64,000 nt of DNA from Candidatus Moraniibacteriota bacterium (GCA_016699795.1 CP065011.1:418474-482473), one strand, 5' to 3'; shown: positions 11,129 to 60,922, numbered from the stretch's first letter. Program-made: numbers and translations. Notes: generated by a model from the letters alone, not told the origin.

Positions 11129-11187
11129 AATTTTCAATGTCGCTATACAATCTGCATAGACAGTAACGTGCACAAATTGAAACCATT

Positions 11188-35586: not shown

Positions 35587-35945
35587 GCGGTATTCATTGT
35601 ACAAAATTCGAACCTTTTTTGAAACCAATCCCGATGAGGAATGAATCGCCCCGCCACCGCCTCGCAGAGCCTCGGCAACCCCGAAAGAAAAAACACTCCT
35701 TGCATTTCTGATTTGGCGGGGGTGAATTTTCTTTTGAAAAAGGAAAGGGTGTTTTTCTTTCGGGGTTCTGCCCTCCAAGTATTCGGGCAGTGTGGCGGGA
35801 CGAAATGCGGACTCGGTTTTGCCAAAACTATTTTCTGGGGGAAAGGATTTGGCAAAACCTCGACTGAATTTCCCGCCCGCAGGAGGGGTCTGGGGAGGAA
35901 TGCGGGCGGGTTTCGGACTGGGGGTTTTTGGAAATTCGGCGGCTA
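35587..35945. repeat. Left copy of perfect ~359-bp inverted repeat (GC-rich, multi-hairpin, apparently non-coding)
   Basis: It is the reverse-complement of 39017-39375. The 98-120-aa ORFs on both strands have identical translations at the two loci and are low-complexity. Internal hairpins include ccccgaaagaaaaaacac/gtgtttttctttcgggg, ggttttgccaa/ttggcaaaacc and cccgcccgca/tgcgggcggg. Confidence 0.85.
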
Positions 35946-39019: not shown

Positions 39020-39375
39020 CCGCCGAATTTCCAAAAACCCCCAGTCCGAAACCCGCCCGCATTCCTCCCCAGACCCCTCCTGCGGGCGGGAAATTCAGTC
39101 GAGGTTTTGCCAAATCCTTTCCCCCAGAAAATAGTTTTGGCAAAACCGAGTCCGCATTTCGTCCCGCCACACTGCCCGAATACTTGGAGGGCAGAACCCC
39201 GAAAGAAAAACACCCTTTCCTTTTTCAAAAGAAAATTCACCCCCGCCAAATCAGAAATGCAAGGAGTGTTTTTTCTTTCGGGGTTGCCGAGGCTCTGCGA
39301 GGCGGTGGCGGGGCGATTCATTCCTCATCGGGATTGGTTTCAAAAAAGGTTCGAATTTTGTACAATGAATACCGC
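39017..39375. repeat. Right copy of perfect ~359-bp inverted repeat
   Basis: Reverse-complement identical to 35587-35945 over the whole length compared. Confidence 0.85.
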
Positions 39376-39399
39376 TATAGAGTTTTTTCCAATATGGGA

Positions 39400-39690
39400 T
39401 TAATTTCCCGTATTGGAGAAAATATTGTGAAAAATCAAAGGGATTCGAACGGGTAGGAGCGAGTCCTCGAGTATCGATGGATGCGAATAAATGAGCATTC
39501 AGCGCTACCCAGGACAACGAACTCCCATTTTGGGAGTGAGGCGAAAATCCCACTCTGGGCAGTGAACGAAGTGAATGAGGAAGAGAAAGAAAGCAAAGAG
39601 TTTTGCTTTCTTTGGAATGAGAAGGGACTTGCGAAGCGACAAAAGTCACCGAAAGTCCCCGGCCCGAAGGGGAATCTCTCTCTTACTTAA
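39400..39690. other. GC-rich structured non-coding arm of the tRNA-Ser element
   Basis: No credible ORF. Contains 'GGGATTCGAACGGG', reminiscent of the tmRNA tRNA-like domain, and a 'GAAAGTCCCCGGCCCGAAGGGG' hairpin. Related sequence recurs in the mini-element after tRNA-Pro(CGG). Confidence 0.35.
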
Positions 39691-44861: not shown

Positions 44862-46313
44862 ATGAAATATATAATTCCTCCATCAGTACTACACACTGGA
44901 AAAACTTTACTTGAAGCGGGTTTTGAGGTTTATCTCGTAGGAGGTTGCGTTCGGGATCTTCTTATGCAAAAAAAACCAAAAGATTGGGATTTTACGACAA
45001 ATGCACTCCCGGAACAAATACAAAAACTATTCCCTGATAGTTTTTATGAAAATACTTTTGGCACCGTTGGCATCAAAGTTCCTGAAGAAATTTCCATAGA
45101 TTCCAGTGATCGTATTATTGAAATCACTACGTATAGAACCGAATTGGGTTATTCAGATAATAGACGCCCTGATCACATACACTTTGCCAAAACTTTAAAG
45201 GAAGATCTCTTACGAAGAGATTTTACTATGAATGCTATTGCTCTATCCCCTCTTAAAAACGAGATTCAAGATTTCTATAATGGCGAGAAAGATATTGAAC
45301 AAAAAATTATTCGTGCCGTAGGAGACCCAAATGAACGTTTTTCTGAAGATGCTCTTCGCATGATGAGGGCTGTTCGATTTTCAAGTGAGCTCTGTTTTTC
45401 TATCGAAGAAAAAACTCTACAAGCCATACAAAAAAATGCTTCTCTTCTCAAAAATATTGCGAAAGAACGTATTCGTTTAGAATTGGAGCGCATTCTTCTT
45501 TCCCCACATCCTTCTGAGGGAATAGAAATGCTTGAAAAATCAGATCTTCTTCAATACATAATTCCCGAACTTCGTGAAGGAATTGGTGTTTCTCAAAATC
45601 TTCACCACACGTATACTGTATGGGAACATAACCTTTTAGCACTTAAAACTTGCCCATCGAAAAAACTTTCCGTTCGTCTCGCTGCACTTTTGCATGACGT
45701 AGGAAAACCCCGAACAAAAAAAGGTGATGGAAAATTCGCCACCTTCTATAATCATGATCATGTTGGTGCTCGTATAACACGAGAAATTCTCAAACGTCTC
45801 ACCTTTCCTCGTGAAATTGTAGAACACACAACCCTTCTCGTAGATCAACATCTCTTTTATTACAACGTGGAAGAAGTTACAGAGTCCGCCGTAAGACGAG
45901 TAATTGCGCGTGTTGGTCTTGAAAACATAAAAGATCTTATTGATGTTCGCATTGGGGATCGACTTGGAAGTGGTGTTCCTAAAGCTAAACCCTACCGACT
46001 TAGACATTTTGAATATATGGTAGAGAAAGTTTCTCATGATCCTATAAATGTTAAGGATCTCAAAATAAATGGAAATGATCTCACTCAAACTCTTACCCTT
46101 AAACCTGGACCAAAAATTGGCGCCATTCTTGACGTTCTTCTTGGAGAAGTTATTGAGGATTCTTCAAAAAATACTAAAGAGTTTCTTCTTGAGCGCGCTC
46201 GTAAACTTGAATCACAAGAAATTGAAACACTTCGCCATACAGCCAAATCTCGCATTGAAGAACAAAGAAAAAAAGATGAGGACTTTATGAAAAGTAAATA
46301 TTGGGTAAAATAA
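44862..46313 (+). CDS. cca: CCA-adding tRNA nucleotidyltransferase with HD domain
   Basis: 'GGCVRDLLMQKKPKDWDFTT' (PolB-like NTase head), 'RDFTMNA', HD motif 'LLHDVGKP'. Confidence 0.85.
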   Translation: MKYIIPPSVLHTGKTLLEAGFEVYLVGGCVRDLLMQKKPKDWDFTTNALPEQIQKLFPDSFYENTFGTVGIKVPEEISIDSSDRIIEITTYRTELGYSDNRRPDHIHFAKTLKEDLLRRDFTMNAIALSPLKNEIQDFYNGEKDIEQKIIRAVGDPNERFSEDALRMMRAVRFSSELCFSIEEKTLQAIQKNASLLKNIAKERIRLELERILLSPHPSEGIEMLEKSDLLQYIIPELREGIGVSQNLHHTYTVWEHNLLALKTCPSKKLSVRLAALLHDVGKPRTKKGDGKFATFYNHDHVGARITREILKRLTFPREIVEHTTLLVDQHLFYYNVEEVTESAVRRVIARVGLENIKDLIDVRIGDRLGSGVPKAKPYRLRHFEYMVEKVSHDPINVKDLKINGNDLTQTLTLKPGPKIGAILDVLLGEVIEDSSKNTKEFLLERARKLESQEIETLRHTAKSRIEEQRKKDEDFMKSKYWVK

Positions 46314-48050: not shown

Positions 48051-48121
48051 CGGGCTGTAGTATACCGGTAGTACGCACCCTTCGGGTGGGTGTAGACTGG
48101 GTTCAATTCCCGGCAGCCCGA
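48051..48121 (+). tRNA. tRNA-Pro (anticodon CGG), no CCA
   Basis: Acceptor CGGGCTG/CAGCCCG, anticodon stem CACCC/GGGTG with loop TTCGGGT, T-arm CTGGG-TTCAATT-CCCGG. The exact 5' end is +/-1 nt. Confidence 0.7.
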
Positions 48122-48245
48122 CAATAATGAATGGGCTGAAGTACACAAACTGCTTTGCGTGCGTCGGAAATTGAAGGGATGGGCGATGCGTTTCGCCGAC
48201 TATCCCTGGCCCGAAGGGAATTTCTAGCAGCCTGACGTGAATTAA
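48122..48245 (+). mobile_element. Miniature tRNA-3'-end-associated element (remnant/CIME-like) with degenerate tRNA-Pro 3'-end copy
   Basis: 'ccctggcccgaagggaatttctagcagcctgacgtgaatt' ends in a degenerate copy of 'ttcaattcccggcagcccgacaataat'. The internal 'gaaggga..gcga.gcg...ggcccgaaggg' parallels the arm at 39630-39675. Confidence 0.35.
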
Positions 48246-48266
48246 TTTATAAAAAGTATCATTTAT

Positions 48267-49025
48267 ATGGAAACATTTCTTTTGTATTTATTCTTTATAG
48301 GAATTGGGGTTATTCTTATTTCTATAAAACAAATCAATCAATACGAGCGTGGAGTAAAATTTACTTTTGGAAAATTTACCTCCATTATAGAACCTGGCTG
48401 GAGACTTATTTTTCCTATAATACAAGGATATCAAAAAGTAGACATGCGAACCCGAGCTGTAGACGTTCCTGATCAAGAAGCTATTACCAAGGATAATATT
48501 TCTGTTCGAGTTAATGCTGTTATTTATTATCGAGTAAATGACGCTCAAAAAGCAATATTGGAAGTAGAAAATTTTTATTTTGCTGTATCTCAACTTGCCC
48601 AAACTACAATGAGAAATATCGTAGGAGAGGTAGATCTCGATGAACTTCTTTCAAATAGAAACGCCATAGCAGAAAAAATACGTCTTATCATTGATAAATC
48701 ATCTGATTCTTGGGGAGTTCAAGTAGAATCTGTTGAACTTAAAGATGCTATTCTTCCTGAGGATATGAAAAGGACTATCGCCAAACAAGCTGAAGCTGAA
48801 AGAGAAAAACGAGCTGTCATTATCAAAGCTGAAGGAGAACTTATCTCAGCTGAAAATATGGCTAAAGCTGCCTCTATTCTCTCGGGAAGTAATGGCGCTC
48901 TCCATTTACGAACACTTCAAACACTCAATGATATTAGTAGCGATGAATCTAATACTATGATCTTTGTGACTCCTATAGAGCTTATACAAGCTATTGAAGG
49001 TTTTTCAAAGAAGATTTCTCGCTAA
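48267..49025 (+). CDS. SPFH/band-7 protein (stomatin/HflK-like)
   Basis: 'ERGVKFTFGKFTSIIEPGWRLIFPIIQGYQKVDMRTRAVDVPDQEAITKDNISVRVNAVIYYRV' plus the C-terminal 'AEAEREKRAVIIKAEGE' coiled coil. Confidence 0.85.
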   Translation: METFLLYLFFIGIGVILISIKQINQYERGVKFTFGKFTSIIEPGWRLIFPIIQGYQKVDMRTRAVDVPDQEAITKDNISVRVNAVIYYRVNDAQKAILEVENFYFAVSQLAQTTMRNIVGEVDLDELLSNRNAIAEKIRLIIDKSSDSWGVQVESVELKDAILPEDMKRTIAKQAEAEREKRAVIIKAEGELISAENMAKAASILSGSNGALHLRTLQTLNDISSDESNTMIFVTPIELIQAIEGFSKKISR

Positions 49026-49060
49026 AAATTACTGAAAATACAAATTTTTTGTATTAGTGT

Positions 49061-49360
49061 ATGCAAATATATGTAAAAGATTTTAATGGAACCGCCGTTT
49101 CTCTTATGCGAAAAATCGGTTATGTTTTCCAAAAACAAGAAAATTCCCATGAATTAGCTTTTGTTCGAACACTAGCACAATCAGGTTTTCCTCGATTTCA
49201 CATCTATGTAAAAAAGAAGGATAAAGAACTTCTTCTTACGATTCATCTTGACCAACACAAAGAAACCTATGGACAAGAAACCCTCCATCATGGAGAATAT
49301 GCTTGTGATGGTGCCCTTGGAGAAGAAATGAAAAGAATTCAACATATTCTCCAAAAATAA
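49061..49360 (+). CDS. Hypothetical protein
   Basis: 99-aa ORF ending 2 nt before tRNA-Leu. Confidence 0.45.
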   Translation: MQIYVKDFNGTAVSLMRKIGYVFQKQENSHELAFVRTLAQSGFPRFHIYVKKKDKELLLTIHLDQHKETYGQETLHHGEYACDGALGEEMKRIQHILQK

Positions 49361-49362
49361 AA

Positions 49363-49445
49363 GCCGAGGTGGCGAAATGGTAGACGCATCAGCCTTAGGA
49401 GCTGACGGAATAATATCCATGGAGGTTCGAGTCCTCTCCTCGGCA
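49363..49445 (+). tRNA. tRNA-Leu (anticodon UAG), long variable arm
   Basis: Acceptor GCCGAGG/CCTCGGC, anticodon stem TCAGC/GCTGA with loop CTTAGGA, T-arm GGAGG-TTCGAGT-CCTCT. Confidence 0.85.
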
Positions 49446-49531
49446 CTACATCTACTCTTGATTTTTTTCTCAAAATAAACTATTACATACCCACAGCCCT
49501 TCAAAAATCCTTCGTACAAGAGAGTTTTTCT

Positions 49532-49852
49532 GTGCAAGTTTTTTTAAGGATTGATCCTTCAGTTTGTAACGAGGCAAAGAAGAAAATGCATTTTGTCATT
49601 AAAGGTCTTTCCATAAATGAAAGAGAAGGTTTTATATATGGAGAAAAAGCCTTCGATCCCTCTACTCAAACAACGAGTATTAAGACTCAGTTCTTTGAAG
49701 GTATTTTTTCGGGTTTTTATCCCCTAGAACAGAGAGAATCCTCTATTCCCATTCAGTATGATAAAATTTTTACCTCTCTCTTGGTGATAAATATCACTCA
49801 GAAAGATTGGGAGAAAAAACTCTCAGAATATCTTCAAATAATCCTTAACTAA
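49532..49852 (+). CDS. Hypothetical protein
   Basis: 106-aa ORF. Confidence 0.4.
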   Translation: MQVFLRIDPSVCNEAKKKMHFVIKGLSINEREGFIYGEKAFDPSTQTTSIKTQFFEGIFSGFYPLEQRESSIPIQYDKIFTSLLVINITQKDWEKKLSEYLQIILN

Positions 49853-49914
49853 GGATTATTAAAAAAGCATCTGCCAAACAAGGTATGATGCTTTTTTCTT
49901 AAATTCCACCTTTT

Positions 49915-50958
49915 TTAGAAATCCCAACTTCCCTTAAGCGAACTTGACTGAGTGTAATTTACAACCGTTGTTTCAAAAAAATTTCCTTTGTCCCCATTAG
50001 TATCTTGTAAACGATCAAGATGTTTATAGGGGTTTGCTATAGCATCAGGATATAAAGGATTAATACTAAGTGTTGCTAGGCGTTTATTGGCAAGCCATCG
50101 AGTATATTCTCTTGTTGTTACCGCATTTATTCCAGGAATTTTATTTCCTAAAATATGCGTCCCCCATTCTATTTCTTGATCAACAGCTGACTTCATCATT
50201 TCAACAATAAGTTTTTCGTTATAAATAGAGGGAAATTCTTTTCGTATTTCACGAATAATATTCGCAAATATCGAGACATGAGTAAGTTCATCCCTTCGAA
50301 TATAAGCAATCATCCTTCCTGTCGCTTGCATTTTCCCACGATCTGTTAAGGTATCAAAGAAAGCAAATCCATTATAGAAATACAGTGACTCCAAAAGGAA
50401 ATTAGCTACAATTCCACGGAAGAAGTTTTCATCGCTTGGGGTATCTATAAAATCTTGGTACATTTGACCTATATACGTATTTCTTTTGAGAAGAATTTTA
50501 TTTTTTCTCCAAAAATAATAAATCTCAGTACGCTCATCACTATCCACGACAGATTCAAGGATAGTTGCATATGACTGTGAATGAATTGCCTCTTGATATG
50601 CCTGAATAGACAAGATGAGATTTACTTCTGGACTCGTAATATACTCAGAAAAATTCGGCAAATTAACCGTCTGTATAGAATCCAAAAAAATAAGAAAAGA
50701 AAGTATACCCTTATAGGCTCGCTGTTCTTCCGCACTCATTTCTGAATGAAACATGCGAGCATCATCTTTAAGTCCCATTACCTTTTCAGGAACCCAAAAA
50801 TTACCAATCATAACTTGATACAAAGATTTTGCCCAAGAATATTTTGTAGCATTTAAATTGAATAATCCTGTTGTATTTCCCTTTATAATAGCCCTATCTG
50901 AAACGTCATCGTTCCCTAAAGGATTAAATATGGGATTTTTTTGCATTTTTTTCACCAT
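49915..50958 (-). CDS. nrdB: Class I ribonucleotide reductase beta (R2) subunit
   Basis: Di-iron ligand motifs ('YQEAIHSQSYATI', 'ANFLLESLYFYNGFAFF', 'ELTHVSIFANII') of the ferritin-like R2 fold. Confidence 0.85.
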   Translation of the reverse strand: MVKKMQKNPIFNPLGNDDVSDRAIIKGNTTGLFNLNATKYSWAKSLYQVMIGNFWVPEKVMGLKDDARMFHSEMSAEEQRAYKGILSFLIFLDSIQTVNLPNFSEYITSPEVNLILSIQAYQEAIHSQSYATILESVVDSDERTEIYYFWRKNKILLKRNTYIGQMYQDFIDTPSDENFFRGIVANFLLESLYFYNGFAFFDTLTDRGKMQATGRMIAYIRRDELTHVSIFANIIREIRKEFPSIYNEKLIVEMMKSAVDQEIEWGTHILGNKIPGINAVTTREYTRWLANKRLATLSINPLYPDAIANPYKHLDRLQDTNGDKGNFFETTVVNYTQSSSLKGSWDF

Positions 50959-50978
50959 AGAAGTTACGTTTAAATAAT

Positions 50979-53597
50979 TTATCCGCTACACGAAACACAA
51001 TCGTCTTTTATTTCACCTGATAAGCTTCGTACATAATATACCGTTTTAATACCATCTTCCCACGCTTTCATATAATAACCAAAGAGTTGTGCAGGACTTG
51101 TCCGCGCAGGATCAATCATCCACTCAAAACTTATTGATTGGTCAATCCATTTATACACAATCGCTATCATATCAATGACATCTGCCATATCCATAGTAAT
51201 ATATTCCCTATAATACCAAAAATTTTCTTTATTAAGTTTTGGAGCTACTCTTATTGTGGAAGAGCTGAGATTTGTTTCAATAAAATATTTTTTATATATA
51301 GGAAGAAGTGCTGCTGTTGTACCAACCACACCCGCTGTGGATGTATTTGGGGCTGGAGCTGTATGATAACCAAATCGTACTCCATATTCTTTCATATCTA
51401 AGAAGATGCGTTTCCATTGTTCTGCATATTTAGTATTTTCTTCAAACCATGAACTTTTATGTCCAAGAAGTATTCCTTTACTATATTCACTTCCTTTATA
51501 TAATTCATATGAGCCTCGCTCTTTCGCTAAATTTATCGATGAGCGATATGTATAATACGCATATCGTTCAAAAAGTTGATCAACTTGTACTCTTGCTTCC
51601 AAACTTTCATATGCCAACTTTCTCGTTGCTAAATATTCTGCCAAACCTAAATATCCTATTCCTATACTGCGATATCTAAGGGCTGTTCTCTCAGCTTCTT
51701 TGATAGGATAATAATTAAGTGTTATCACATTATCCAAGACACGTAGAAGAATGGGAAATGTTTTTTTCATCACTGATTCCGTATAGACTTTAGCAACATT
51801 TACAGAAGCAAGATTACAAACAACAAGATCTCCAGGTTGATAGCGAATAATAATTTCTCCACTTTCTTCCAAAACTTCTTTTTTAAATACTGTAGGTGAT
51901 GTATTTTGACAAATTTCTGTACAAAGCTGAGTAGAATAAATATTTCCAGCGTGTTTATTTGGATTTAATCTATTTACAGTATCCCTATAAAACACATAGG
52001 GCATACCTGTTTCAACTGTTGCTTTGAGAAATTTTTTAAATAAATCCTTTGCAAGAACTGTTTTCTTTAATTTCAAACGATTATCAGCTTCAAGTTCTTT
52101 ATAAAATTTTTCAAATTCTTTTCCAAAATGATCTTCTAATTTTTTCCCCCAAACACTACCCACTTCATGGGGATCAAAAAGTGTCCATTCCCCCTCATCC
52201 TTCAATCTTTTCATAAAAATATCAGGAATAGAAACGGCTGGAAATATATCAAATGCTTTAGAACGAATATCTCCTGTTTCTGTTTGAAGATCAAGGAAAT
52301 CATAAATATCTGCATGCCAAATATCAAGCGTAACAGAAATTGCTCCAGCACGAGCCCCGAGCTGATTAACTGCATTAGCCGTATCATTTATAACTTTTAT
52401 CCAAGGATTAACTCCGCCAGAGGTACCCTCTACTTTACGAATCATCGCCCCTCGTGAGCGAATATGACCGAGATACACACCAATACCCCCTCCAAATTTA
52501 GAAATCTGCGCCATATTCTCAATACCATGATAAATGGCTCTTAAATCATCATCTATATTTATTTTAAAACAGCTAGAAAGTTGATGGTAATTCGTTCTTG
52601 CATTAAGGAGTGTCGGAGTTGGTAATGATATTCTTTGCTCAGAACATTCTTCGTAAAGACGTAAAGCAAATTTAAGACGGTTCTCTTTTTTCTCAGGAAT
52701 AGCCAAAAATAAAGCAACTGACATATACATCTCCTGAGGAAGTTCCTTAACAATCTTATTAGGATTTAAAAGATATCTATTTGCAAGAGATAATATAGTT
52801 GTATATTCATAATTTTCATCCGTATTTTTATTTAAATAACGGCCTGCTTCCAGAATATCTTCTTTAGAATAATATTGATAAAAATCCTTATAATAGAGAC
52901 CCTGTTGAATATAATCATCAAATAAAGATTTGTAAGACTGTGCTGAATATAATTTCTCCATTGAAAGTTTTCGGTTAGAAAGTGCCTGTTTGTACAAATT
53001 CCCCAAAAAAATTCTTGCTCCTACATATTGCCAAGCAATATTTTCCACACTCACCAAATCAATACAAGTCTTTACTAAAAGTTTATTTATATCAGATGTT
53101 TTAATATCCTCTACAATGTTATTTTTAAAAGCCTCAACTAATTCTTTAAAAAGACATTGTTTTTCATAGCCCTTTGAAGCCCTATCAAAGACTTTTTTTA
53201 TCTTTTTTATATCAAAAAGTTCTTTAGATTTATTATTTTTTATCACTTTAAGTGATTTTTTCTCAAACTGTGAAATGAGATATTCTTTTCGCTCTTCGCG
53301 TTCTCGTCGATGTTCCTCACGATAAAGAATATATGCCTTTGCTACCTCAAAATATTCAACTCGCATCAAAGCTCGCTCAACAGCATCTTGTATCTTTTCA
53401 ACAACAGGGATTGATGAATGAATTTCATTTTCACAATGACGTTCCAATTCTTCAACAATCTCATCAACAAGAAATGGAATAAACTCCTGATCTTTTTCTC
53501 CTATAGCATCACATGCTTTTTGGATAGCTTCTTCGATTCTTGCTCGATCAAAGTCCTCTATTTCACCGTCACGTTTTTGAATATGTGTGATAGTCAT
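50979..53597 (-). CDS. nrdA: Class I ribonucleotide reductase alpha (R1) subunit with ATP-cone
   Basis: N-terminal ATP-cone ('HIQKRDGEIEDFDRARIEEAI'), catalytic-core 'CNLASVNV' and C-terminal Cys pair 'CVSCSG'. 872 aa. Confidence 0.9.
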   Translation of the reverse strand: MTITHIQKRDGEIEDFDRARIEEAIQKACDAIGEKDQEFIPFLVDEIVEELERHCENEIHSSIPVVEKIQDAVERALMRVEYFEVAKAYILYREEHRREREERKEYLISQFEKKSLKVIKNNKSKELFDIKKIKKVFDRASKGYEKQCLFKELVEAFKNNIVEDIKTSDINKLLVKTCIDLVSVENIAWQYVGARIFLGNLYKQALSNRKLSMEKLYSAQSYKSLFDDYIQQGLYYKDFYQYYSKEDILEAGRYLNKNTDENYEYTTILSLANRYLLNPNKIVKELPQEMYMSVALFLAIPEKKENRLKFALRLYEECSEQRISLPTPTLLNARTNYHQLSSCFKINIDDDLRAIYHGIENMAQISKFGGGIGVYLGHIRSRGAMIRKVEGTSGGVNPWIKVINDTANAVNQLGARAGAISVTLDIWHADIYDFLDLQTETGDIRSKAFDIFPAVSIPDIFMKRLKDEGEWTLFDPHEVGSVWGKKLEDHFGKEFEKFYKELEADNRLKLKKTVLAKDLFKKFLKATVETGMPYVFYRDTVNRLNPNKHAGNIYSTQLCTEICQNTSPTVFKKEVLEESGEIIIRYQPGDLVVCNLASVNVAKVYTESVMKKTFPILLRVLDNVITLNYYPIKEAERTALRYRSIGIGYLGLAEYLATRKLAYESLEARVQVDQLFERYAYYTYRSSINLAKERGSYELYKGSEYSKGILLGHKSSWFEENTKYAEQWKRIFLDMKEYGVRFGYHTAPAPNTSTAGVVGTTAALLPIYKKYFIETNLSSSTIRVAPKLNKENFWYYREYITMDMADVIDMIAIVYKWIDQSISFEWMIDPARTSPAQLFGYYMKAWEDGIKTVYYVRSLSGEIKDDCVSCSG

Positions 53598-53750
53598 ATA
53601 TTTTCATTATATTTTTTATTTCGATTCATTTTTAACTAAAAACTGGAGAATTTCTTTTATATGCAATTTTTATTCAAAAACTTACATTTTAGAGAAGGAA
53701 AAGGAGTGGCAAAAAACCACCCCCTCATTCTTTCTACAAAGAAAAATGAA

Positions 53751-54329
53751 CTATTTTACAAACCGAGATTCAACAACACGCCAATCAATAGCTTTCATAA
53801 AAATTTCAATATAATCCACTCGCTTCAAACCATAGTCAATCATATATGCGTGTTCGAATACATCCATCACAAGAAGTGGGATCGAGCCAGAAAGATGTCC
53901 TCCGTCATGCTCATTAATCCATACATTAAAAAATTGATCTTCTTGGGGATCATAGTAGAGCACAATCCAACCAATTCCTCTCATTACAGCCATAGATCGA
54001 AAATCTTTTTCCCACACCTCCAAACTTCCCCATTCTTTCTTGAAAGCCTCTTTCAATTTTCCTTCCAAAAGAAAAGATTTTTCTTTTGTAAGATTTCCAA
54101 AATACAATTCATGAAGTCGCATACCATTCCATTCCCATCCAAATCGTCGATTCATTTCCGCATATTCTGGCACGATAAACTTCTCATTTCTCCTTAATTC
54201 TATCAAAGAATCTTGTAATTTATTAACATTGGCAACATATCCTTCATAAAGGGTAAAATGATTCCTTAATAAATCTTCACTCATTCCTGAGATTCCCAAA
54301 AGATGTTCAAATTTCTTCGGATGATACAT
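53751..54329 (-). CDS. Fe/Mn superoxide dismutase
   Basis: 'FEHLLGISGMSEDLLRNHFTLYEGYVANVN' and 'DVFEHAYMIDYG' (SOD Fe/Mn signature D-x-W-E-H-[STA]-[FY]2). Confidence 0.9.
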   Translation of the reverse strand: MYHPKKFEHLLGISGMSEDLLRNHFTLYEGYVANVNKLQDSLIELRRNEKFIVPEYAEMNRRFGWEWNGMRLHELYFGNLTKEKSFLLEGKLKEAFKKEWGSLEVWEKDFRSMAVMRGIGWIVLYYDPQEDQFFNVWINEHDGGHLSGSIPLLVMDVFEHAYMIDYGLKRVDYIEIFMKAIDWRVVESRFVK

Positions 54330-54373
54330 AAATAATACTTTATTTTATATTTTATCGCTATTGAAAAATATTT

Positions 54374-54961
54374 TTAAATCTTTCCTACCAAGTCTACTCC
54401 TGGCTTTAATGTTTTCTTCCCTGGAGTCCATCGAGCAGGACAAACCTCTCCCTTATGCTTTGATACATAAATAGACGCTCTCAATTTTCGAAGTAATTCT
54501 TCAGCATTTCGTCCAATAGAATTATCATTCACTTCGTAGGCCTTAAGCACTCCCTTTGGATCGATAATGAATGTTCCTCGAAGAGCAAGTCCTTCCTCTG
54601 GAATATAAATTCCGAAATACTTTGCTATTTGTGCAGTAGGGTCAGCTCCCATTGGATAAGTAATCTTTTTTATAGAAGGTGAATTATCATGCCAAGCCTT
54701 ATGAACAAATGCCGTATCTGTACTAAAACTAACAATTTCAGCACCTTCTTTAACAAAATCTTTATAATTCTCTGCGAGATCTTCAAGCTCCGTAGGGCAA
54801 ATAAAAGTAAAATCTGCTGGATAAAAAAAGATAATTAACCACTTATCTTTAAAATCAGATATTTTTTTCTTCGAAATTCTATTATTTTGAAATACTTCAA
54901 ACGAAAGATCTTCGATTTTTTCCCCTATTACAGGATGTCGATTATTATTTATTTGTTCCAT
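54374..54961 (-). CDS. Peroxiredoxin (AhpC/TSA, typical 2-Cys)
   Basis: 'FYPADFTFICPTEL' peroxidatic Cys motif, resolving 'GEVCPARW'. Confidence 0.9.
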   Translation of the reverse strand: MEQINNNRHPVIGEKIEDLSFEVFQNNRISKKKISDFKDKWLIIFFYPADFTFICPTELEDLAENYKDFVKEGAEIVSFSTDTAFVHKAWHDNSPSIKKITYPMGADPTAQIAKYFGIYIPEEGLALRGTFIIDPKGVLKAYEVNDNSIGRNAEELLRKLRASIYVSKHKGEVCPARWTPGKKTLKPGVDLVGKI

Positions 54962-55256
54962 ACTTTTATAAGAATTGATATATTATTTTTACATTTTATA
55001 CAAAAACTTCTCTTTAGCTTGAAATTATATAAAACTACTCCTTAGTGTATTCCAACAAAAATATCTTGTCAAACCAAAAGAAACCAATTATACAAAAAAA
55101 CACAACATATTGTGCTTTTTCAATAAAAAAAACACAATCAATGTATTTCATACAATAAAAATACTCTCCAAAAAACCTTCGAATTTTTCTTATTATAAAG
55201 ATTAGGAAGGCTTCTTCACTAAAAATTTTAGAAAAAATACAATTAAGATACATACA

Positions 55257-57542
55257 TTATTGAATTTCATAAATTTCATATTCCTCCCCATATGATTTTA
55301 TAAAGACAATATCCTGATTTTCTTCCAAAAAAGATTTAAAATTTTTAGATGCAATACATATTTTATTCTCTTCCATATTCTCTTTATGTAAACATGTATT
55401 AGCTCGGAAACGATAAAAAAGGATATATTTAACATTAAATTTCTTTAAAACCTCTTTAGGATTTTCTTCTTTTGAAAAACACAAGAATAACTCACCAAAA
55501 AAATCAGGAATAAAATTTTTATATGAATCTTGAAGAAAATATCCTTGAGGCTCAAAAAGGCCATAAATTTTTACATCTTCTTTTAAAAGCCTTATGCGAT
55601 TATTAAGAAATTGTGATGCCTGAAAAAGGAAATAATTACCAGAATCACATCTTTTATCAACTTTATCACAAGATATCTGTTCAAAACCCTCACTCAAATC
55701 AATTTCATTTCGAAAGTATTCAAGCTTTGTTGGTATATTTGAAATAAGGGAAAAAATAAAAATTAAGAAAGTAGAAATAAAGAAAATAGATATTTTAACA
55801 GCATTTTGTATTACGATTGTTTTCCTTGAAATTTGAATAAAAGCTATGTATAACCATAAAAAAAACGATGGCCCTAAATACCAGATTTGTCCACTTAAGA
55901 AAAATGCCCAAAAAAAGAAATACATCCAGGAAAAAATAAAAATAATTCCATCAAATAAAGAAAATTTTCTCCATTGAAAAAATAATATTACTGGCAAAAA
56001 AAGGAAAAAATAAATTCCTGGGTTATTCAACAAAAAACTATTATTTCCCAATAAAAAATGGGAAATAAAAAATATTTTTACATTATTAATAAAACTCACA
56101 GCCTCTCTTTTTATATCAAATTTCCAACTATAAATGAAAATAACATCTTCTCGAATCTGCTGAGTAAATTCTTTATGACAAGAATCTCCATTCTGAGAGG
56201 AATAAATGTTTTTTCCATCCATTAAGGGATAAAAGGGTGAGCTGTAAAAAGAAAGATCTTTTACCATCCATGGAAACATAGCTATAAACATAAACAATGT
56301 AACAATAAGAATATGTTGAATTCGAATCTTTTTTAAAATCCAGAAAACAAAAAAGATACTTAAGAAAAAGATAATAAAGAAGACTGCTGTATATTTTATG
56401 GACATAAGGAATCCCAATAAAATACCAAAAATTGAGTATGTACCAAGAGATTTTTTTAAGGAAATTTTTTCAATAATATCCCTAAAAACAAGAAGTGTGA
56501 CAAGAAAGAAGAAATAAAGAAAAAGATCTATTTTTAAATGAAAAAAACTCATGTTAAGCAAAAAAGGAAACGTCGAAAAAACAAGAACAAACCATATCTT
56601 CAATGACCCTTTTCCCCCCTTCACAGATAATAAGTCAAAAAAAGCAAGCGCGGAAAATACATATAATAACCAGTGCAAAACAAAAGGACCCAGTAATCCT
56701 AAAGAAAAATAACCAGCCATAAACAAAATTTCTCCCAGTTGAGGAAATCCCCAATGAGGATGAAATGCAAAAGGAATAATATGTCCTAAACGAGCATATG
56801 TTTCAGGAAAAGTAAGATACTGATGAAAAGTATCCCATCCCCCACTTAGTAATGAACCTAGAGAAGAAAGAAAACTTGAAAGAAAAATAAGAATTAAAAT
56901 AATCCAAGGAATAACTTCTATTCCGAAATGAGATGCTATTCGAAAAGAAAACGCCACAGAAAAAAAATCACGCAAAAAATGAAATATTTTTTTATAAAAA
57001 ATAAAGCTTAAAAACAAAACAATCCCTAAAAAAGAAAAATTATTTATTCCAAAAAATAGCGTGAAAAGATATAAGCTATATCCAAAACATCCCATTCCCA
57101 TAGCAAATGAGACGAGAAAATAGCTCATTTTTCTTTTTGTGTAATATCCAAAAAATTTCAAAATGCTCTCTCCTATACTTATTGAAAGAAGCACAAGCAT
57201 TCCTAAAAAAAAGAAAATAAAAAAAATATCTAAAAAACCAAAAAATAATTTGCCCCACAGTTCCATTTTTAAAGCATATTCCTGAAAAACTAAAGAAAAT
57301 ATAAGGATGAAAATGAAAAAAATTAAAATCCAAACAGGTATTTTAGACTCCAAAATAAACTCTTTTAAGATTTTTCTCAAAAAGAACAAACTAAAGAAAA
57401 GAAAAGAAAAGAAAACAATCAGGAGAAGTCCAAAAAGAAGAAGAAAATCTCTCACAGTATCCAAAGGAAGTAATGTTGCAACATAGGGAATACTTGACAT
57501 TCCAATAAGCCAAAAAATATATAAAATCTCTTTTTTAATCAT
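55257..57542 (-). CDS. Large polytopic membrane protein (>15 TM; possibly ArnT/PMT-family glycosyltransferase or O-antigen/pilin glycosylation-type)
   Basis: 761 aa, almost entirely hydrophobic helices, with a soluble ~150-aa C-terminal domain. Family unassigned. Confidence 0.55.
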   Translation of the reverse strand: MIKKEILYIFWLIGMSSIPYVATLLPLDTVRDFLLLFGLLLIVFFSFLFFSLFFLRKILKEFILESKIPVWILIFFIFILIFSLVFQEYALKMELWGKLFFGFLDIFFIFFFLGMLVLLSISIGESILKFFGYYTKRKMSYFLVSFAMGMGCFGYSLYLFTLFFGINNFSFLGIVLFLSFIFYKKIFHFLRDFFSVAFSFRIASHFGIEVIPWIILILIFLSSFLSSLGSLLSGGWDTFHQYLTFPETYARLGHIIPFAFHPHWGFPQLGEILFMAGYFSLGLLGPFVLHWLLYVFSALAFFDLLSVKGGKGSLKIWFVLVFSTFPFLLNMSFFHLKIDLFLYFFFLVTLLVFRDIIEKISLKKSLGTYSIFGILLGFLMSIKYTAVFFIIFFLSIFFVFWILKKIRIQHILIVTLFMFIAMFPWMVKDLSFYSSPFYPLMDGKNIYSSQNGDSCHKEFTQQIREDVIFIYSWKFDIKREAVSFINNVKIFFISHFLLGNNSFLLNNPGIYFFLFLPVILFFQWRKFSLFDGIIFIFSWMYFFFWAFFLSGQIWYLGPSFFLWLYIAFIQISRKTIVIQNAVKISIFFISTFLIFIFSLISNIPTKLEYFRNEIDLSEGFEQISCDKVDKRCDSGNYFLFQASQFLNNRIRLLKEDVKIYGLFEPQGYFLQDSYKNFIPDFFGELFLCFSKEENPKEVLKKFNVKYILFYRFRANTCLHKENMEENKICIASKNFKSFLEENQDIVFIKSYGEEYEIYEIQ

Positions 57543-57662
57543 AAAAACTTTATAGCATACTTTTCATTTTCTTGACTCGATAAAGAATACTAGAGTATAC
57601 GTTAAACTATAAAGAAAGCCCCGATATAAGAATGTCTATGATAGAGCTTAAATTAAACTAAA

Positions 57663-59213
57663 ATGAAAAAAAGTCAAAAAACAGCCCTCATTATAGGTGC
57701 TGGTCCTGCAGGTCTTACAGCAGCGCTTGAAATACTGAGAAAAAGTAATCTCCAAGTTATTATTATAGAAAAAGACTCTGTTGTTGGAGGAATTTCTAAA
57801 ACAATTCCCTTTAAAGGAAATCGTATTGACATAGGAGGTCATCGTTTTTTTTCAAAATCAGATGAGGTAATGCTTTGGTGGAATGAAATACTTCCCATAC
57901 TCGACAAAAACAATGATCATTTCTTACCCAAAGAGAGTTTTCACTTTATTTCTCAAAAAGAGTATAAAAAGAATCTCCCTAAAAATATAATGTTTATTCG
58001 AAAAAGAATCTCAAGAATATTCTATGCCAATACATTCTTTACGTATCCCATAACATTTACTTTAGAGACCCTTAAGAATCTCGGTTTTTTTTCTTCCCTT
58101 ACTATAGCCTTTTCCTATATTTTTCATAAACTCTTTCCAAGGAAACCAGAAAACACTTTAGAAGATTTTTTTATCAACAAATTTGGAAAAAAACTTTATT
58201 CTTTATTCTTTAAAGAATATACCGAAAAGGTATGGGGGACTTCCTGTAAAAACATACAAGCTACGTGGGGAGCACAAAGAATAAAAGGACTTTCTTTGAG
58301 AAAGGTTATTTCTCATTCATTACATACCTGTTTTTCAAAAAAAACTCTGTCTTCCAAAAAAATTGAAACCAGTCTTATTGAAAGATTTCTTTATCCAAAA
58401 TATGGACCAGGACAAATGTGGGAACTCGTAGCAAAACACATACTAAAAAGAAAAGGAAAGATTCTTTTTCATCATGAGATAGAAAATATATATATTTCAA
58501 AAAATACAGTTACTTCTCTAGAAATAAAAAACAAAGAAACTCAAGAAAAATTCACCATAAACACCGACTTTGTTTTTTCAAGTATGCCCATTTCTGAGCT
58601 CATTCACACCATGAAAGATCAGCCACCTCAAGAAGTTCAAGCTATTTCTAAAGAACTTACCTACCGTGATTTCATAACAGTCGGAATACTTTGTTCTTCT
58701 TTTTTACCCTCAACAAAAATCAAAGATAATTGGATATACATACAAGAACCAGGATTACAAGTAGGAAGAATTCAGATATATAACAACTGGAGTCCTTTTA
58801 TGGTGAAAAATCCAAAAGAAACAATATGGATTGGATTGGAATATTTTACGAATAAACATGATGCTTTTTGGAGTATGAACGATGAAGAAATTCTTTCTTT
58901 AGCAAAAAAAGAATTAGTTCAAATGAAAATGACTTCATTAGAAAATATTCTGGATGGTATTGTTATTAGAGTTGAAAAAGCCTATCCTTCTTACATAGGA
59001 AGTGGCTATAAACAATTCTCTATAATAAAGGAATATCTTCTTTCTTTAGAGAATCTTTATCCTATAGGAAGAAATGGAACACATACCTACAACAATCAAG
59101 ATCATTCCATGCTTTCAGCGATTCGATCTGTTGAGCATATGCTTACGAATTCTCCAAGTAAAGAATCTCTATGGCGGATTAATTCTGAAAAAGAATATCA
59201 TGAGAAAAGGTGA
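57663..59213 (+). CDS. FAD/NAD(P)-binding oxidoreductase (amine-oxidase / UDP-galactopyranose-mutase-like)
   Basis: '[18 protein letters not shown]' (GxGxxG Rossmann motif) and 'IDIGGHRFF'. Confidence 0.65.
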
Positions 59214-59319
59214 GGTATGCCCTTTCGCAAAACGCTTGACGTTTCTCTTATTCTCCCTTATTATAGGGAAGTTAAAAAAATAACTGCTCGATATTTTCGT
59301 ATCGTCTTATCTCAAATAT

Positions 59320-59781
59320 ATGCACTCTGACGTTATTGCCTTTAATCTTGCTCAAAGAACTCATGTTGTTCCAGATCTTAAAACTGGTGATATTGTTCGT
59401 GTTTATAGGAAAATTAAAGAAGGCGATAAAGAGCGTATTCAAATCTTTGAAGGTCTTATTATACGTATTCAGGCCAAACAAAGCTCCTCTCCTATTATAA
59501 CCGTTCGAAAAACCTCTTTCGGAATCGGTGTTGAAATCATGTTCCCTATTCATTCTCCTTCAGTAGATAAAATTGAAATAGTCAAAAAAGCGAAGATTCG
59601 TCGCGCAAGACTTTACTTCGTTCGAGAGAAAACAGACAGAGAATTAAGAAAGAAACTTCGAGCAGTTACTGTGGCAACAAAAAAAGTATCTCCTAAAAAA
59701 GATGATAAAGTTTCAAAAGTTCCTTCTCAAGAAGTAAAGGCTAAAAAGGAAACGGTTATTTCAGAAGCTCAGGAAAAATAA
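59320..59781 (+). CDS. rplS: 50S ribosomal protein L19 with Lys-rich C-terminal extension
   Basis: 'FNLAQRTHVVPDLKTGDIVRVYRKIKEGDKERIQIFEGLIIRIQ'. Confidence 0.9.
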   Translation: MHSDVIAFNLAQRTHVVPDLKTGDIVRVYRKIKEGDKERIQIFEGLIIRIQAKQSSSPIITVRKTSFGIGVEIMFPIHSPSVDKIEIVKKAKIRRARLYFVREKTDRELRKKLRAVTVATKKVSPKKDDKVSKVPSQEVKAKKETVISEAQEK

Positions 59782-59789
59782 AACATCAT

Positions 59790-59874
59790 GCCCAGGTGGC
59801 GGAACCCGGTATACGCGCTAGCTTGAGGTGCTAGTTCTCGCAAGGGATTGGAGGTTCAAATCCTCTCCTGGGCA
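59790..59874 (+). tRNA. tRNA-Leu (anticodon GAG), long variable arm
   Basis: Acceptor GCCCAGG/CCTGGGC, anticodon stem CTAGC/GCTAG with loop TTGAGGT, T-arm GGAGG-TTCAAAT-CCTCT. Confidence 0.75.
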
Positions 59875-60033
59875 CACCAAGGAAGTACGTCAACTACTTG
59901 ACGTATGTGAGGATTTGAAAGCCGGAGCGATGTGCGAAGCACCGCGAGGCGGGGTCGAAAGATTTTCTTTGAAAAAAGAAAATACTTGTGACCAAATCCT
60001 CTCCTGGGCACACCAAGGAAGTATGTAAGGAGA
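59875..60033 (+). mobile_element. Miniature element inserted at tRNA-Leu(GAG) 3' end: 115-nt insert bounded by perfect 31-nt direct repeat
   Basis: 'caaatcctctcctgggcacaccaaggaagta' at 59857-59887 recurs at 60003-60033. The intervening 'gaaagccggagcgatgtgcgaagcaccgcgaggcggggtcgaaagatttt...gaaaatacttgtgac' is shared with the element after tRNA-Val. Confidence 0.5.
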
Positions 60034-60113
60034 GATTGAAAGTCAAAGCGTTGTGTGCAAAAGATATAAAGGTTGATCCGGAAGAGAAAAGGAGTATACT
60101 ATAAAATATATAT

Positions 60114-60187
60114 GCGTGCTTAGCTCAGTTGGCTAGAGCATCTCGTTTACACCGAGAGGGTCAGGGGTTCGAGTCCCTTAGCACGCA
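60114..60187 (+). tRNA. tRNA-Val (anticodon UAC)
   Basis: Acceptor GCGTGCT/AGCACGC, D-arm GCTC/GAGC, anticodon stem TCTCG/CGAGA with loop TTTACAC, T-arm AGGGG-TTCGAGT-CCCTT. Confidence 0.85.
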
Positions 60188-60376
60188 CAACAAACATCGT
60201 GAGTTTTGTGTGTTATGTACGCCAACTGCTTGGCGTACATAGGGACGAGAAAGCCGGAGTAAAGTGTGAGTTTTCCCTGAATCTTCGAAGGGAAAGGCAA
60301 ACACCACGAGGCGGGGTCGAAAGATTTTTCCGTCAGGAAAAATACTTGTGACCGAGTCTCTCGATAAGTACACAAT
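60188..60376 (+). mobile_element. Miniature tRNA-Val 3'-end-associated element with degenerate tRNA 3'-end copy
   Basis: The internal 'gaaagccggagtaaagtgtga...accacgaggcggggtcgaaagatttttcc...gaaaaatacttgtgacc' is homologous to the tRNA-Leu mini-element. The terminal 'gagtctctcgataagtacacaat' resembles the tRNA-Val 3' end 'gagtcccttagcacgcacaac'. Confidence 0.35.
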
Positions 60377-60566
60377 TTTTATCAATCATAAAAAATCGCC
60401 TTAAAGCGGTTTTTATTTTTGACCATTAAAAAATAAACAGGAGATTCTCCCCTTCTATCGCTTCGCACGTGCCTTTGACACAGACTACGCATCTCCTCCA
60501 GAGCCGGGGTTTTCAAAACGTGAAGCAGTTCACGTTTTGAAATACCCTTCGATTCCCCTCGTTTTT

Positions 60567-60608
60567 ACACCTACCTAAATACAAAAGACCCCATATGGGG
60601 TCTTTTGT
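60567..60608. terminator. Perfect 20-bp palindrome (cctaaatacaaaagacccca/tggggtcttttgtatttagg), bidirectional terminator candidate
   Basis: It lies immediately 3' of the minus-strand tRNA-Gly(GCC). Confidence 0.45.
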
Positions 60609-60680
60609 ATTTAGGTGAGCGAGAGACGGGAATCGAACCCGCGACCTATTCCTTGGCAAGGAATCGTTCTACCATTGAAC
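60609..60680 (-). tRNA. tRNA-Gly (anticodon GCC)
   Basis: Reverse-complement GCGAGAG...anticodon stem ATTCC/GGAAT with loop TTGCCAA...T-arm GCGGG-TTCGATT-CCCGT...CTCTCGC. Confidence 0.85.
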
Positions 60681-60750
60681 CACTCTCGCATCTTTATTTA
60701 TTTTTTGAAAAATACCCTCAGACAGCATATCCCGAAAATTTCCTCTTCAG

Positions 60751-60823
<73 letters not shown>

Positions 60824-60850
60824 TTCTTTTTTATTATTTTCGCTCTAACG

Positions 60851-60922
60851 TGCCTGGGGTGAGAATCGGACTCACGACACAAGGATTTTCAGTCCTTTGC
60901 TCTACCACTGAGCTACCCAGGC
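60851..60922 (-). tRNA. tRNA-Phe (anticodon GAA)
   Basis: Reverse-complement GCCTGGG, D-arm GCTC/GAGC, anticodon stem AAGGA/TCCTT with loop CTGAAAA, T-arm GTGAG-TCCGATT-CTCAC, acceptor CCCAGGC. Confidence 0.85.

Follow-up and report, generated by a model that had tools for sequence, protein, structure and literature searches.

What kind of element places a GC-rich segment directly behind a tRNA gene and ends it in a copy of that gene's own 3′ end? The question is raised by a 64,000-nt stretch of a Candidatus Moraniibacteriota genome (CP065011.1, 418474–482473; hereafter the window, meaning the whole stretch at its full length), which is AT-rich (GC ~36%) and contains ten tRNA genes. The GC-rich stretches studied here lie 3′ of tRNA-Pro(CGG), tRNA-Leu(GAG), and tRNA-Val(UAC), and each was found where an initial annotation of the sequence had placed it, ending in a copy of the 3′ end of its own tRNA. 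The explanation favored here, with about even confidence, is that the segments are non-autonomous, non-coding cassettes of Patescibacteria (~105–190 nt) that are nested in tRNA genes and probably act as RNA. The three tRNA genes, identified with ARAGORN and Rfam, are:

48051–48122, plus strand: tRNA-Pro(CGG).
59790–59875, plus strand: tRNA-Leu(GAG), intact, with its last 19 nt in copy 1 of the direct repeat described below.
60114–60188, plus strand: tRNA-Val(UAC).

The direct repeat at tRNA-Leu(GAG), which the initial annotation described as a perfect 31-nt repeat, is indeed exact at both sites (caaatcctctcctgggcacaccaaggaagta, 59857–59887 and 59993–60023, spacing 136 nt) and reaches 34 nt if one mismatch is allowed. 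It begins at T-loop position 56 (C56), directly after GGTT, and ends 12–13 nt beyond the tRNA. The features of the Leu–Val site, in which P0 to P3 denote paired stems and type 1 the core shared by the Leu and Val inserts, are:

59857–59887, plus strand: direct repeat copy 1, from T-loop C56 to the tRNA-Leu 3′ end plus the following 12–13 nt (repeat search).
59886–59905, plus strand: hairpin 1 of the Leu insert, tacgtcaa-CTAC-ttgacgta (sequence and fold).
59907–60006, plus strand: type-1 core of the Leu insert (covariance model R1, 82.8 bits; matched by the minimum free energy fold).
59993–60023, plus strand: direct repeat copy 2, the displaced tRNA-Leu 3′ end, which pairs with the 5′ strands of the insert (P1 and P0).
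60024–60113, plus strand: an older, decayed copy of the Leu insert without hairpin 1 and distal P3 (alignment of unit 1 with unit 2).
60189–60376, plus strand: Val insert, type 1 (R1, 75.4 bits; folds; repeats), upstream of the operon terminator at 60391–60414.

The core of the Leu insert consists of the P1 5′ strand (gaggatttg), GAAA, P2 (GCC-GGA-stem-GA-GGC), GG, P3, and the P1 3′ strand, and this last strand is the beginning of the displaced tRNA-Leu 3′ end. The Val insert contains a P0 5′ strand (tgtgtgtt, 60207–60214), hairpin 1 (60214–60241), and a core with a long P2 (60239–60366), and ends in a degenerate copy of the tRNA-Val 3′ end (60353–60376). The counterparts of hairpin 1 in the Val and Pro inserts have other stems and a CTGC loop. 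As had been noted, the tRNA-end copies at Val and Pro are degenerate (>5 substitutions over 22 nt); they are discernible only by eye and were missed by a mismatch search. The sequence sharing claimed for the Leu and Val inserts is also borne out, in the form of three blocks (53 nt at 74%, 30 nt at 93%, and 20 nt at 90% identity) and a 22-mer (CGAGGCGGGGTCGAAAGATTTT) with exactly two exact occurrences in the window, one in each of the two inserts, and none in 100 shuffles. The second unit between tRNA-Leu and tRNA-Val (60024–60113) aligns with the Leu insert along its length but is heavily diverged (~60% identity where aligned). A recent simple tandem duplication is therefore unlikely, since the repeats are identical at 31 of 31 positions while the unit bodies strongly differ, and at the Leu site a fresh insert copy adjoins an old one. 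A sigma-70-like promoter (TTGATC, 16 nt, TATACT) was observed inside the decayed copy at 60073–60100, just upstream of tRNA-Val, and the decayed insert may have been reused as a promoter for that gene.

The window was compared with loci from other genomes and metagenomes (labeled with L-numbers). The closest relative found, L045 (L19 protein 79% identical), has an identical tRNA-Leu(GAG) followed after ~24 nt by tRNA-Val, as against a Leu–Val spacer of 238 nt in the window, and eight further Moranbacteria loci contain a compact Leu-Val-Phe-Met-Gly operon with spacers of 55–130 nt and no copy of the insert. Similarly, the Val–Arg spacer of L033 is 14 nt long and the same place in L028 is occupied by an insert together with an exact 20-nt copy of the tRNA-Val end. 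Exact copies of 19–20 nt of a tRNA 3′ end, each beginning at C56, are present in L028, L041, and L033. Two marks of elements that target tRNA genes were thus found: filled and empty sites among relatives (L045 empty; L033 empty and L028 filled), and direct repeats of a tRNA 3′ segment that bound the insert and leave the tRNA intact (the window, L028, L041, and L033). The segments are real insertions tied to tRNA genes, as the initial annotation had supposed. A separate observation concerns two assemblies with identical L19 proteins, L054 (5195–5361) and L052 (10661–10880): the former lacks the 5′ 54 nt of tRNA-Val and keeps the T-arm and 3′ end, which is either a real deletion or an assembly error.

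All parts of a type-1 insert follow one order: tRNA, spacer, hairpin 1, P1 5′ strand, GAAA, P2, GG, P3, and the tRNA 3′-end copy, the first 8–10 nt of which form the P1 3′ strand. The conserved fold is a variable hairpin followed by a three-way junction of P1, P2, and P3. Hairpin 1 varies in stem sequence among copies and often has the apex CAAA-NNNN-UUUG; P2 is composed of GCC, GGA, a stem of variable length, GA, and GGC, with GGA/GA as an internal loop; and P3 reads GGUCGAAAGAUUUUU...AAAAAUACUUGUGACC. P1 joins strands that lie 70–110 nt apart and changes with the tRNA (GAGGAUUUG/CAAAUCCUC at the window tRNA-Leu, AGGGAC/GUCUCU at the window tRNA-Val, GUGGGAAUCG/CGAGUCCCAC in L041, and GGGAGAC/GUCUCCC in L033). 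P0 arises where sequence 5′ of hairpin 1 pairs with the copied acceptor 3′ strand; all 10 pairs form in L039, all 8 at Val, and 5 of 6 at Leu. The minimum free energy fold of the Leu copy contains P0, hairpin 1, P1, P2, and P3 (−51.8 kcal/mol, z = −5.25).

In an alignment of 17 copies that was fitted to the covariance model, 89% of the cells contain standard pairs (compared with 41–47% when the partners are slid by 1–3 columns), 18 out of 30 pairs display changes on both sides, with all four helices represented, and none of 500 shuffles reaches any of five fold measures. Within the parts that were fixed in the seed, compensatory changes occur in copies that were retrieved by the model and not by the seed: P2a changes from GCC/GGC to GGU/GCC in L033 and to GAC/GUC in L061, P3 changes from AAG/CUU to GAA/UUC in L033, and the second unit of L034 has another stem in place of distal P3. 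Read as the tRNA-sense strand, the alignment contains 40 G.U but 13 A.C combinations, and one G.U pair in P3 is kept in 16 out of 17 copies; a single-stranded form of the tRNA-sense strand is therefore favored. The same count led to the rejection of the opposite strand as the functional one, which had been a candidate since the core, read as its reverse complement, is similar to a tRNA 3′ end. As modeled, the insert and the displaced end together look like a pseudo-tRNA in which one hairpin stands for the D and anticodon arms and the P2–P3 core stands for the T-loop. The acceptor-like P0 and the T-stem-like P1 both covary, but the T-loop is replaced by the core, so the structure is a part-tRNA mimic only; neither the Rfam tRNA model nor ARAGORN calls a tRNA at this place.

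Type 1 was recovered as 17 distinct copies from 14 sources (the window, five GTDB genome contigs, and eight metagenome contigs). A scan with an 18-mer of one genome per species returned 32 loci, five of which are real and 27 of which were dropped on inspection as chance matches in high-GC genomes; a scan of metagenomes with a 20-mer returned 11 loci, several of them duplicating one another, and a covariance model built from 13 copies retrieved additional copies. For at least 12 of the 17, a tRNA gene is found no more than ~130 nt away and invariably on the same strand; seven tRNA species are involved (Leu-GAG, Leu-TAA, Val-TAC, Ala-TGC, Arg-TCT, Ile-GAT, and Ser-GGA). The hosts are labeled as Patescibacteria, Saccharibacteria, and Moraniibacteriota, plus one Bdellovibrionales bin that is probably mis-binned. 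GC content of the stretches that carry type 1 ranges from 29% to 53%, and near-identical stretches of core are present across genomes labeled Saccharibacteria, Moraniibacteriota, and other Patescibacteria. The left end of type 1 is variable and the right end conserved (...CTTGTGAC), and tandem copies exist in L005 and L034. Viral contigs contained no copy by 22-mer and 17-mer scans (one match, L044, was rejected as chance), and no match was returned by blastn from phage and plasmid collections. Only tRNAs reach the gathering threshold of Rfam 15 across the whole window, and permissive Rfam scans of the window inserts, L024, L028, L041, and L043 gave only matches below threshold, none of which covers the elements. 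Literature searches turned up no account of elements of this sort.

The remaining inserts of the window carry other cores:

48123–48236, plus strand: Pro insert, type 2 (sequence, fold, and motif search; no match in Rfam).
39585–39690, plus strand: a second type-2 mini-insert (sequence, motif search, and fold).
60439–60616, minus strand: type-4 insert after tRNA-Gly(GCC) (sequence and terminator scan).

Type-2 inserts combine a hairpin 1, a P1 whose partner strand is the T-loop/T-stem portion of the tRNA-end copy, and the distinct core GAAGGGAY..RUCCCYGGCCCGAAGGG. The Pro insert has hairpin 1 at 48141–48162 (CTGC loop), a P1 of ggaaatt (48166–48172) with aatttct (48219–48225), the core GAAGGGAT..ATCCCTGGCCCGAAGGG, and a degenerate tRNA-Pro 3′-end copy (48219–48236). 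Its inner strand and its tRNA-end copy are both altered from the tRNA sequence, A-U replacing G-C; the copy is being kept as a pairing partner and is not freely decaying. The mini-insert at 39585–39690 likewise possesses a hairpin 1, with GAAGGGAC..GTCCCCGGCCCGAAGGGG as core and the tRNA-Ser 3′ end in degenerate copy; a partial copy of the same end precedes it at 39542–39556. A compensatory change distinguishes the two (stem GGGAT/ATCCC in Pro, GGGAC/GTCCC in the mini-insert). The motif GGCCCGAAGGG(R)AAT occurs in the window only at 48208 and 39661 (two matches in none of 100 shuffles), and the likeness of the Pro insert to the Ser region spans 39621–39675, which comprises GGCCCGAAGGG and its surroundings. 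This motif had been assigned to the right arm of a 5.7-kb tRNA-Ser element; the match at 39661 is real but belongs to the mini-insert and not to the recombinase unit described below.

The type-4 Gly insert contains a terminator-like hairpin, GAGGGGAATCGAAGGG (T-arm antisense), a long hairpin with a CTGC loop, and a GCGAAGC mini-hairpin, and terminates in a terminator-like site (60453–60439). After the same tRNA-Gly, L046 (4780–5340) carries a different-looking insert in three complete, near-identical tandem units of ~181 nt and the start of a fourth, each complete unit then carrying a tRNA-end copy plus terminator. L047 (2230–2450), like the window and L046, has an insert of a core type other than type 1 after tRNA-Gly(GCC). 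It was also observed that the Phe-Met-Gly(GCC) tRNA block (window 60617–60922) has, in the window, L046, and L047, the opposite orientation to that in the Leu-Val-Phe-Met-Gly operon of other Moranbacteria (L050, L052, and L056 compared), with a breakpoint that coincides with the location of inserts. The GCGAAGC mini-hairpin recurs in three of the four insert types of the window (types 1, 3, and 4). The inserts thus represent at least three or four core types and not one family: the initial annotation had at least four tRNA genes targeted by a single family, and the number of genes was, if anything, low (at least five are affected), but the single family does not hold.

The region of tRNA-Ser(CGA) contains type 3 and the first of two large serine recombinase genes:

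33863–35449, minus strand: large serine recombinase gene (Pfam Resolvase, Recombinase, and Zn_ribbon_recom).
33944–34057, plus strand: type-3 module directly after the CCA of tRNA-Ser(CGA), arm 1 of an inverted repeat (33938–34057).
35471–35590, minus strand: type-3 module, inverted arm 2, upstream of the recombinase gene.

The two inverted arms of ~120 nt are 73% complementary, and arm 1 is 98% identical to L059 3859–3979. The recombinase open reading frame (ORF) continues through the module into the tRNA, and conservation at the protein level stops near residue 471. A unit of ~1.7 kb can be delimited in the window (33944–35622, perhaps to 35945), L058 (3828–5503), L059 (3837–5526), and L060 (173–1897); homology with the latter three is confined to this unit, the recombinase lies between inverted modules in all three, and a module abuts tRNA-Ser in two. 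The unit holds the recombinase gene only and usually lies directly after a tRNA 3′ end. More than 7000 homologues of the recombinase were found, from many Patescibacteria, and in most of the best 120 (81–95% identity) the C-terminal tail is an antisense reading of the module followed by the antisense tRNA 3′ end. Judged by these sequences, the unit resembles a minimal insertion element of the serine-recombinase kind that has spread with great success. Type-3 modules also stand alone, without a recombinase in the vicinity, after tRNA-Ile in L021 and after tRNA-Leu in L028. The consensus fold of type 3 supports a central hairpin only. At the outer end of the distal type-3 module (35591–35622, minus strand) a degenerate sequence resembling a tRNA 3′ part was noted (GGTTCGAAT...ACCGCA), and both ends of the recombinase unit therefore resemble an inverted tRNA end plus module.

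The 5.7-kb tRNA-Ser element of the initial annotation does not exist as a single element; by its sequence the region is a mosaic of the ~1.7-kb recombinase unit, a segment bounded by 362-nt repeats, and the separate type-2 mini-insert. The perfect 362-nt inverted repeats (35584–35945 and 39017–39378) flank ~3 kb with NUDIX, HAD, and DHH/DHHA2 genes. This segment could be invertible, could stem from a recent inverted duplication, or could be an artefact of assembly. Near the recombinase in L058 and L060, parts of the 362-nt repeat recur. The second large serine recombinase (11188–12795) is 30% identical to the first, and its frame ends within the 3′ end of tRNA-Gly(UCC). An ORF with a primase-type zinc ribbon (8993–9565) lies near it in a stretch of higher GC (8990–12795) that is probably a small integrated replicon; no GC-rich module and no clear tRNA-end copy were seen in that stretch.

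Under the favored explanation, the cassette lies on the strand of the tRNA and is inserted into the T-loop of its gene, with the junction between positions 55 and 56. It brings a replacement for the 3′ part of the tRNA, so that the tRNA stays whole, and leaves the original 3′ part on its far side, where the inner strands of the cassette pair with it to give the pseudo-tRNA (P0, P1, and the core at the place of the T-loop). The sequences show the insertion polymorphism, the repeat, the compensatory changes of the fold, the constant strand, and the location within the tRNA transcription unit; function, processing, and spread are inferred from these. The fold would work as an RNA produced with the tRNA operon. 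The Leu and Val inserts both lie between a promoter-like site before rplS and the operon terminator (promoter/terminator scan) and therefore should be transcribed with the tRNAs. The stems of the pseudo-tRNA might serve as processing sites at which tRNA-processing enzymes excise the cassette, and, by sequestering the spare 3′ end, they might prevent its competition with the genuine end. CCA is not encoded in eight of the ten tRNA genes of the window (tRNA-Ser and tRNA-Pro(UGG) encode it). A gene for a CCA-adding enzyme is present at 44862–46313, 1.7 kb upstream of tRNA-Pro(CGG).

The cassettes are non-coding and therefore cannot move unaided; they would spread without an enzyme of their own by recombination through the tRNA-identical stretch, and two routes are conceivable. 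One is homologous recombination following the uptake of DNA, in which the tRNA and the displaced end would act as homology arms; it fits because the repeat length varies from 19 to 31 nt and the Leu repeat extends into shared flank. The other is a site-specific recombinase acting in trans, for which the best candidate would be the prolific large serine recombinase, because its gene abuts tRNA 3′ ends and has a module of similar appearance on either side. Type 3 and some type-1 copies have the words GGAATC(R)(R)AAGCCG and GGGGTCG in common. Attachment sites of large serine recombinases are imperfect palindromes of ~40–50 bp around a central dinucleotide; P3, at ~39 bp, and the hairpin region of type 3, at ~55 bp, are imperfect palindromes of about this size, and only type 3 adjoins a recombinase gene. 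The link of a recombinase to type-1 and type-2 inserts is only suggestive. The initial annotation had the inserts share arm sequences with the full-length tRNA-Ser element; what stands of this is that a sister module forms the ends of the recombinase unit abutting tRNA-Ser. The type-1 profile does not detect that module.

Several observations weigh against parts of this explanation. A terminator-like hairpin with a T-run separates tRNA and cassette in L026, L039, and L033, and co-transcription with the tRNA is therefore not universal. A folded form of single-stranded DNA may be the active form instead of RNA, and the model gives no account of how the inner strands come to match a new tRNA. Symmetric changes in the half-sites of a dimer-binding DNA site could mimic covariation in P3, but not in P1, because the strands of P1 lie 70–110 nt apart. 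The type-1 set was collected with exact 18–20-mers located within P3, so that the conservation of P3 is inflated. A variant without P1 exists at three loci (L021, L034, and L038). At L021 and L034 this variant precedes a tRNA gene and itself follows a copy of the 5′ part of that tRNA, so that the junction is not always at 55/56. As for a recombinase in trans, nhmmer with the type-1 profile gave no match to type-3 modules, tblastn of both recombinases against 17 loci (12 with a type-1 copy) gave no match in the available flanks, and no large protein in a collection of 5.8 billion reads through the antisense type-1 core in the two of its three frames that lack a stop (the peptide search returned only three ORFs of 42–69 amino acids). 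An autonomous, integrase-bearing parent with type-1 or type-2 arms was not found; type 3 alone flanks a recombinase gene.

Among the alternatives, the one that survives best, although unlikely, builds on the initial annotation: the segments would be attL/attR remnants that lost their cargo, or miniature elements, moved in trans by large serine recombinases. On this reading the miniature elements would consist of attP only, recognition would be of double-stranded DNA, and the hairpins and palindromes would be binding sites for the recombinase or accessory proteins and not RNA. Much of the tRNA-Ser region speaks for it, as the two recombinase genes of the window each converge on a tRNA 3′ end, the tRNA-Ser recombinase lies between inverted ~120-nt modules in the window, L058, L059, and L060, and most of its 120 closest homologues read through a module into an antisense tRNA 3′ end; the solo type-3 modules (L021 and L028), the recombinase-site size of the P3 and type-3 palindromes, and the words shared by type 3 and some type-1 copies point the same way. 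Remnants with deleted cargo are contradicted by the architecture itself, which is complete in 17 copies with compensatory changes and not reproducible by independent deletions. P1 pairs distant strands and varies with the tRNA, the old copies (Val and Pro) have drifted from the tRNA sequence and retained the pairing, a double-stranded circle of 136 bp is an unlikely substrate for recombination, and no conserved terminal sequence marks the left end of the insert. The flanks of the 12 type-1 loci lack a recombinase, no protein reads through type 1, the type-1 profile misses type 3, and the motif common to Pro and Ser lies outside the recombinase unit.

A second, slightly less likely alternative holds that the segments are small-RNA genes of the host derived from duplicated tRNAs, that is, pseudo-tRNAs with an expanded T-loop that are inherited vertically, often lost, and not mobile, with gene conversion keeping the repeat. 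Compensatory changes, conserved junction nucleotides, and the location within tRNA operons would all be expected of such genes, and the acceptor- and T-stem-like strands resemble the 5′ strands of a neighboring tRNA (GGACCAG for GGGCCAG in L039, ACCAAGG for GCCCAGG in the window). It is difficult to reconcile with a sporadic distribution in which the same site is empty in nine related loci, with near-identical cores across distantly labeled hosts of 29–53% GC, with a fresh copy beside a decayed one at a single tRNA, with tandem copies (L005 and L034) and tandem arrays (L046), and with one core at seven tRNA species.

It is improbable that the cassette RNA is a targeting RNA, in which inner strands that can pair with the T-arm and the acceptor end of a particular tRNA gene direct a recombinase to that gene, with the large serine recombinase as natural candidate. 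The bridge RNA of the IS110 family is a structured non-coding RNA of a mobile element with short target-complementary stretches. The cassettes are likewise structured and contain short stretches complementary to the target site, but lack a DEDD recombinase and have their complementary strands paired in cis, and no serine recombinase is known to use RNA. If true, this proposal would make the cassettes a serine-recombinase counterpart of the bridge RNA, in which altered inner strands would retarget the element, and this would explain how one core comes to lie at seven tRNA species.

Miniature derivatives of the IS200/IS605 type, or orphan TnpB/IscB guide scaffolds with the displaced tRNA 3′ end as guide, are about as improbable and were rejected. 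The hairpin-rich, non-coding format of 100–200 nt, the conserved structured 3′ part that stops exactly at a target-derived junction, and the same GGTT before the junction in all tRNAs agree with such elements, and ORFs of an IS200-type Y1 transposase are present in L050 (11801–12200), ~230 nt after a tRNA cluster. However, 19–31 nt are duplicated here, whereas such elements produce no long target duplication, and the restored tRNA recreates motif and target, so that a guided nuclease would cut the host tRNA gene. No TnpA, TnpB, or IscB was found among the 19 window ORFs scanned against Pfam, the other loci having been checked for the two recombinases only, and Rfam returned no match to known guide scaffolds. 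Ordinary tRNA trailers or terminators with repeats from local tandem duplication, which the 136-nt spacing, the homologous second Leu unit, and the terminator-like hairpins of some copies might suggest, are scarcely credible: the initial annotation named trailers present in all relatives as the case that would undo it, and the segments are absent from relatives with the same tRNA operon (L045 and eight Moranbacteria loci), the repeat is identical at 31 of 31 positions while the unit bodies differ heavily, the same core lies at unrelated tRNAs of distant genomes, and no T-run follows hairpin 1 in the window.

With tRNA-nested cassettes as the preferred reading, the closest known systems can be compared. 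Integration sites of the T-loop class are known from tRNA genes. Integrative elements of tRNA genes and their gene-less derivatives (cis-mobilizable elements, CIMEs) have been reviewed (PMC5704250). The cassettes share with these the insertion from the T-loop to the 3′ end, the restored tRNA, the displaced end as a direct repeat, tandem accretion, and the absence of genes of their own. They differ by a length of only 105–190 nt, by a covarying fold that uses the displaced end as a strand, in that no integrase-bearing parent with the same arms was found, and in the variant behind a tRNA 5′ copy at two loci. The cassettes behave like tRNA integrative elements reduced to their ends, with a covarying fold that is not known for such ends. 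As non-autonomous elements nested in tRNA genes they form a variant that has not been described before, distinguished by a structured core that mimics a tRNA.

Miniature inverted-repeat transposable elements (MITEs) and solo insertion-sequence ends are also short, non-coding, multi-copy, and sporadic, and the same genome contains a recombinase-only unit whose inverted ends of ~120 nt consist of a look-alike module. Unlike MITEs, the cassettes have neither terminal inverted repeats nor a short target duplication but a variable left end, a conserved right end, and a duplication of 19–31 nt of tRNA; they target one defined tRNA position, and the flanking gene is a large serine recombinase and not a DDE transposase. 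A MITE was rejected on these grounds. Recombination sites that fold as single strands include integron attC and the CTX-phage attP used by XerCD. There, as here, inverted strands around a variable or branched middle fold into a target-like duplex and stem structure is conserved over sequence, but in the cassettes the middle (P2 and P3) is the most conserved part and the target is a tRNA gene. No link of the cassettes to an integron integrase or Xer was found. Among tRNA-like RNAs (the tRNA-like domain of transfer-messenger RNA, viral tRNA-like structures, mascRNA, and pseudo-tRNAs), the stacked acceptor- and T-stem-like stems form a comparable minihelix-like structure where tRNA-processing enzymes act; in the cassettes, by comparison, a three-way junction of 70–110 nt replaces the T-loop and one hairpin replaces the D and anticodon arms. 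Hammerhead, twister, hairpin, and hatchet ribozymes were rejected as well, because the junctions do not fit their cores by eye and Rfam returned no ribozyme match.

If the preferred reading is true, the cassettes are an undescribed class of tiny tRNA-nested elements that restore the gene they interrupt and put the displaced tRNA end to use in a folded, tRNA-like molecule, a new and harmless lifestyle for a gene-less element in an essential gene. They would add a structured RNA family to organisms whose non-coding RNA is little known and would mark recent DNA exchange between distant lineages with genomes of ~1 Mb. The recombinase-only unit, of which thousands of near-identical copies adjoin tRNA 3′ ends, is a candidate for a minimal site-specific insertion system, and a functional tie of its recombinase to the folded modules, if there is any, would be of interest for genome engineering.

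Finally, group I introns interrupt the anticodon loop of tRNA genes in Patescibacteria (PMC13011429). Such an intron was rejected for the inserts of the window, since the tRNAs are uninterrupted, the inserts of 105–190 nt (as against ~200 nt or more for a group I core) lie 3′ of a complete tRNA, and there is no Intron_gpI match. At one of the compared loci (L050, 10920–11300), the anticodon loop of tRNA-Phe(GAA) is interrupted by an insert of ~260 nt and ARAGORN makes no call; this insert is probably a group I intron of that kind.

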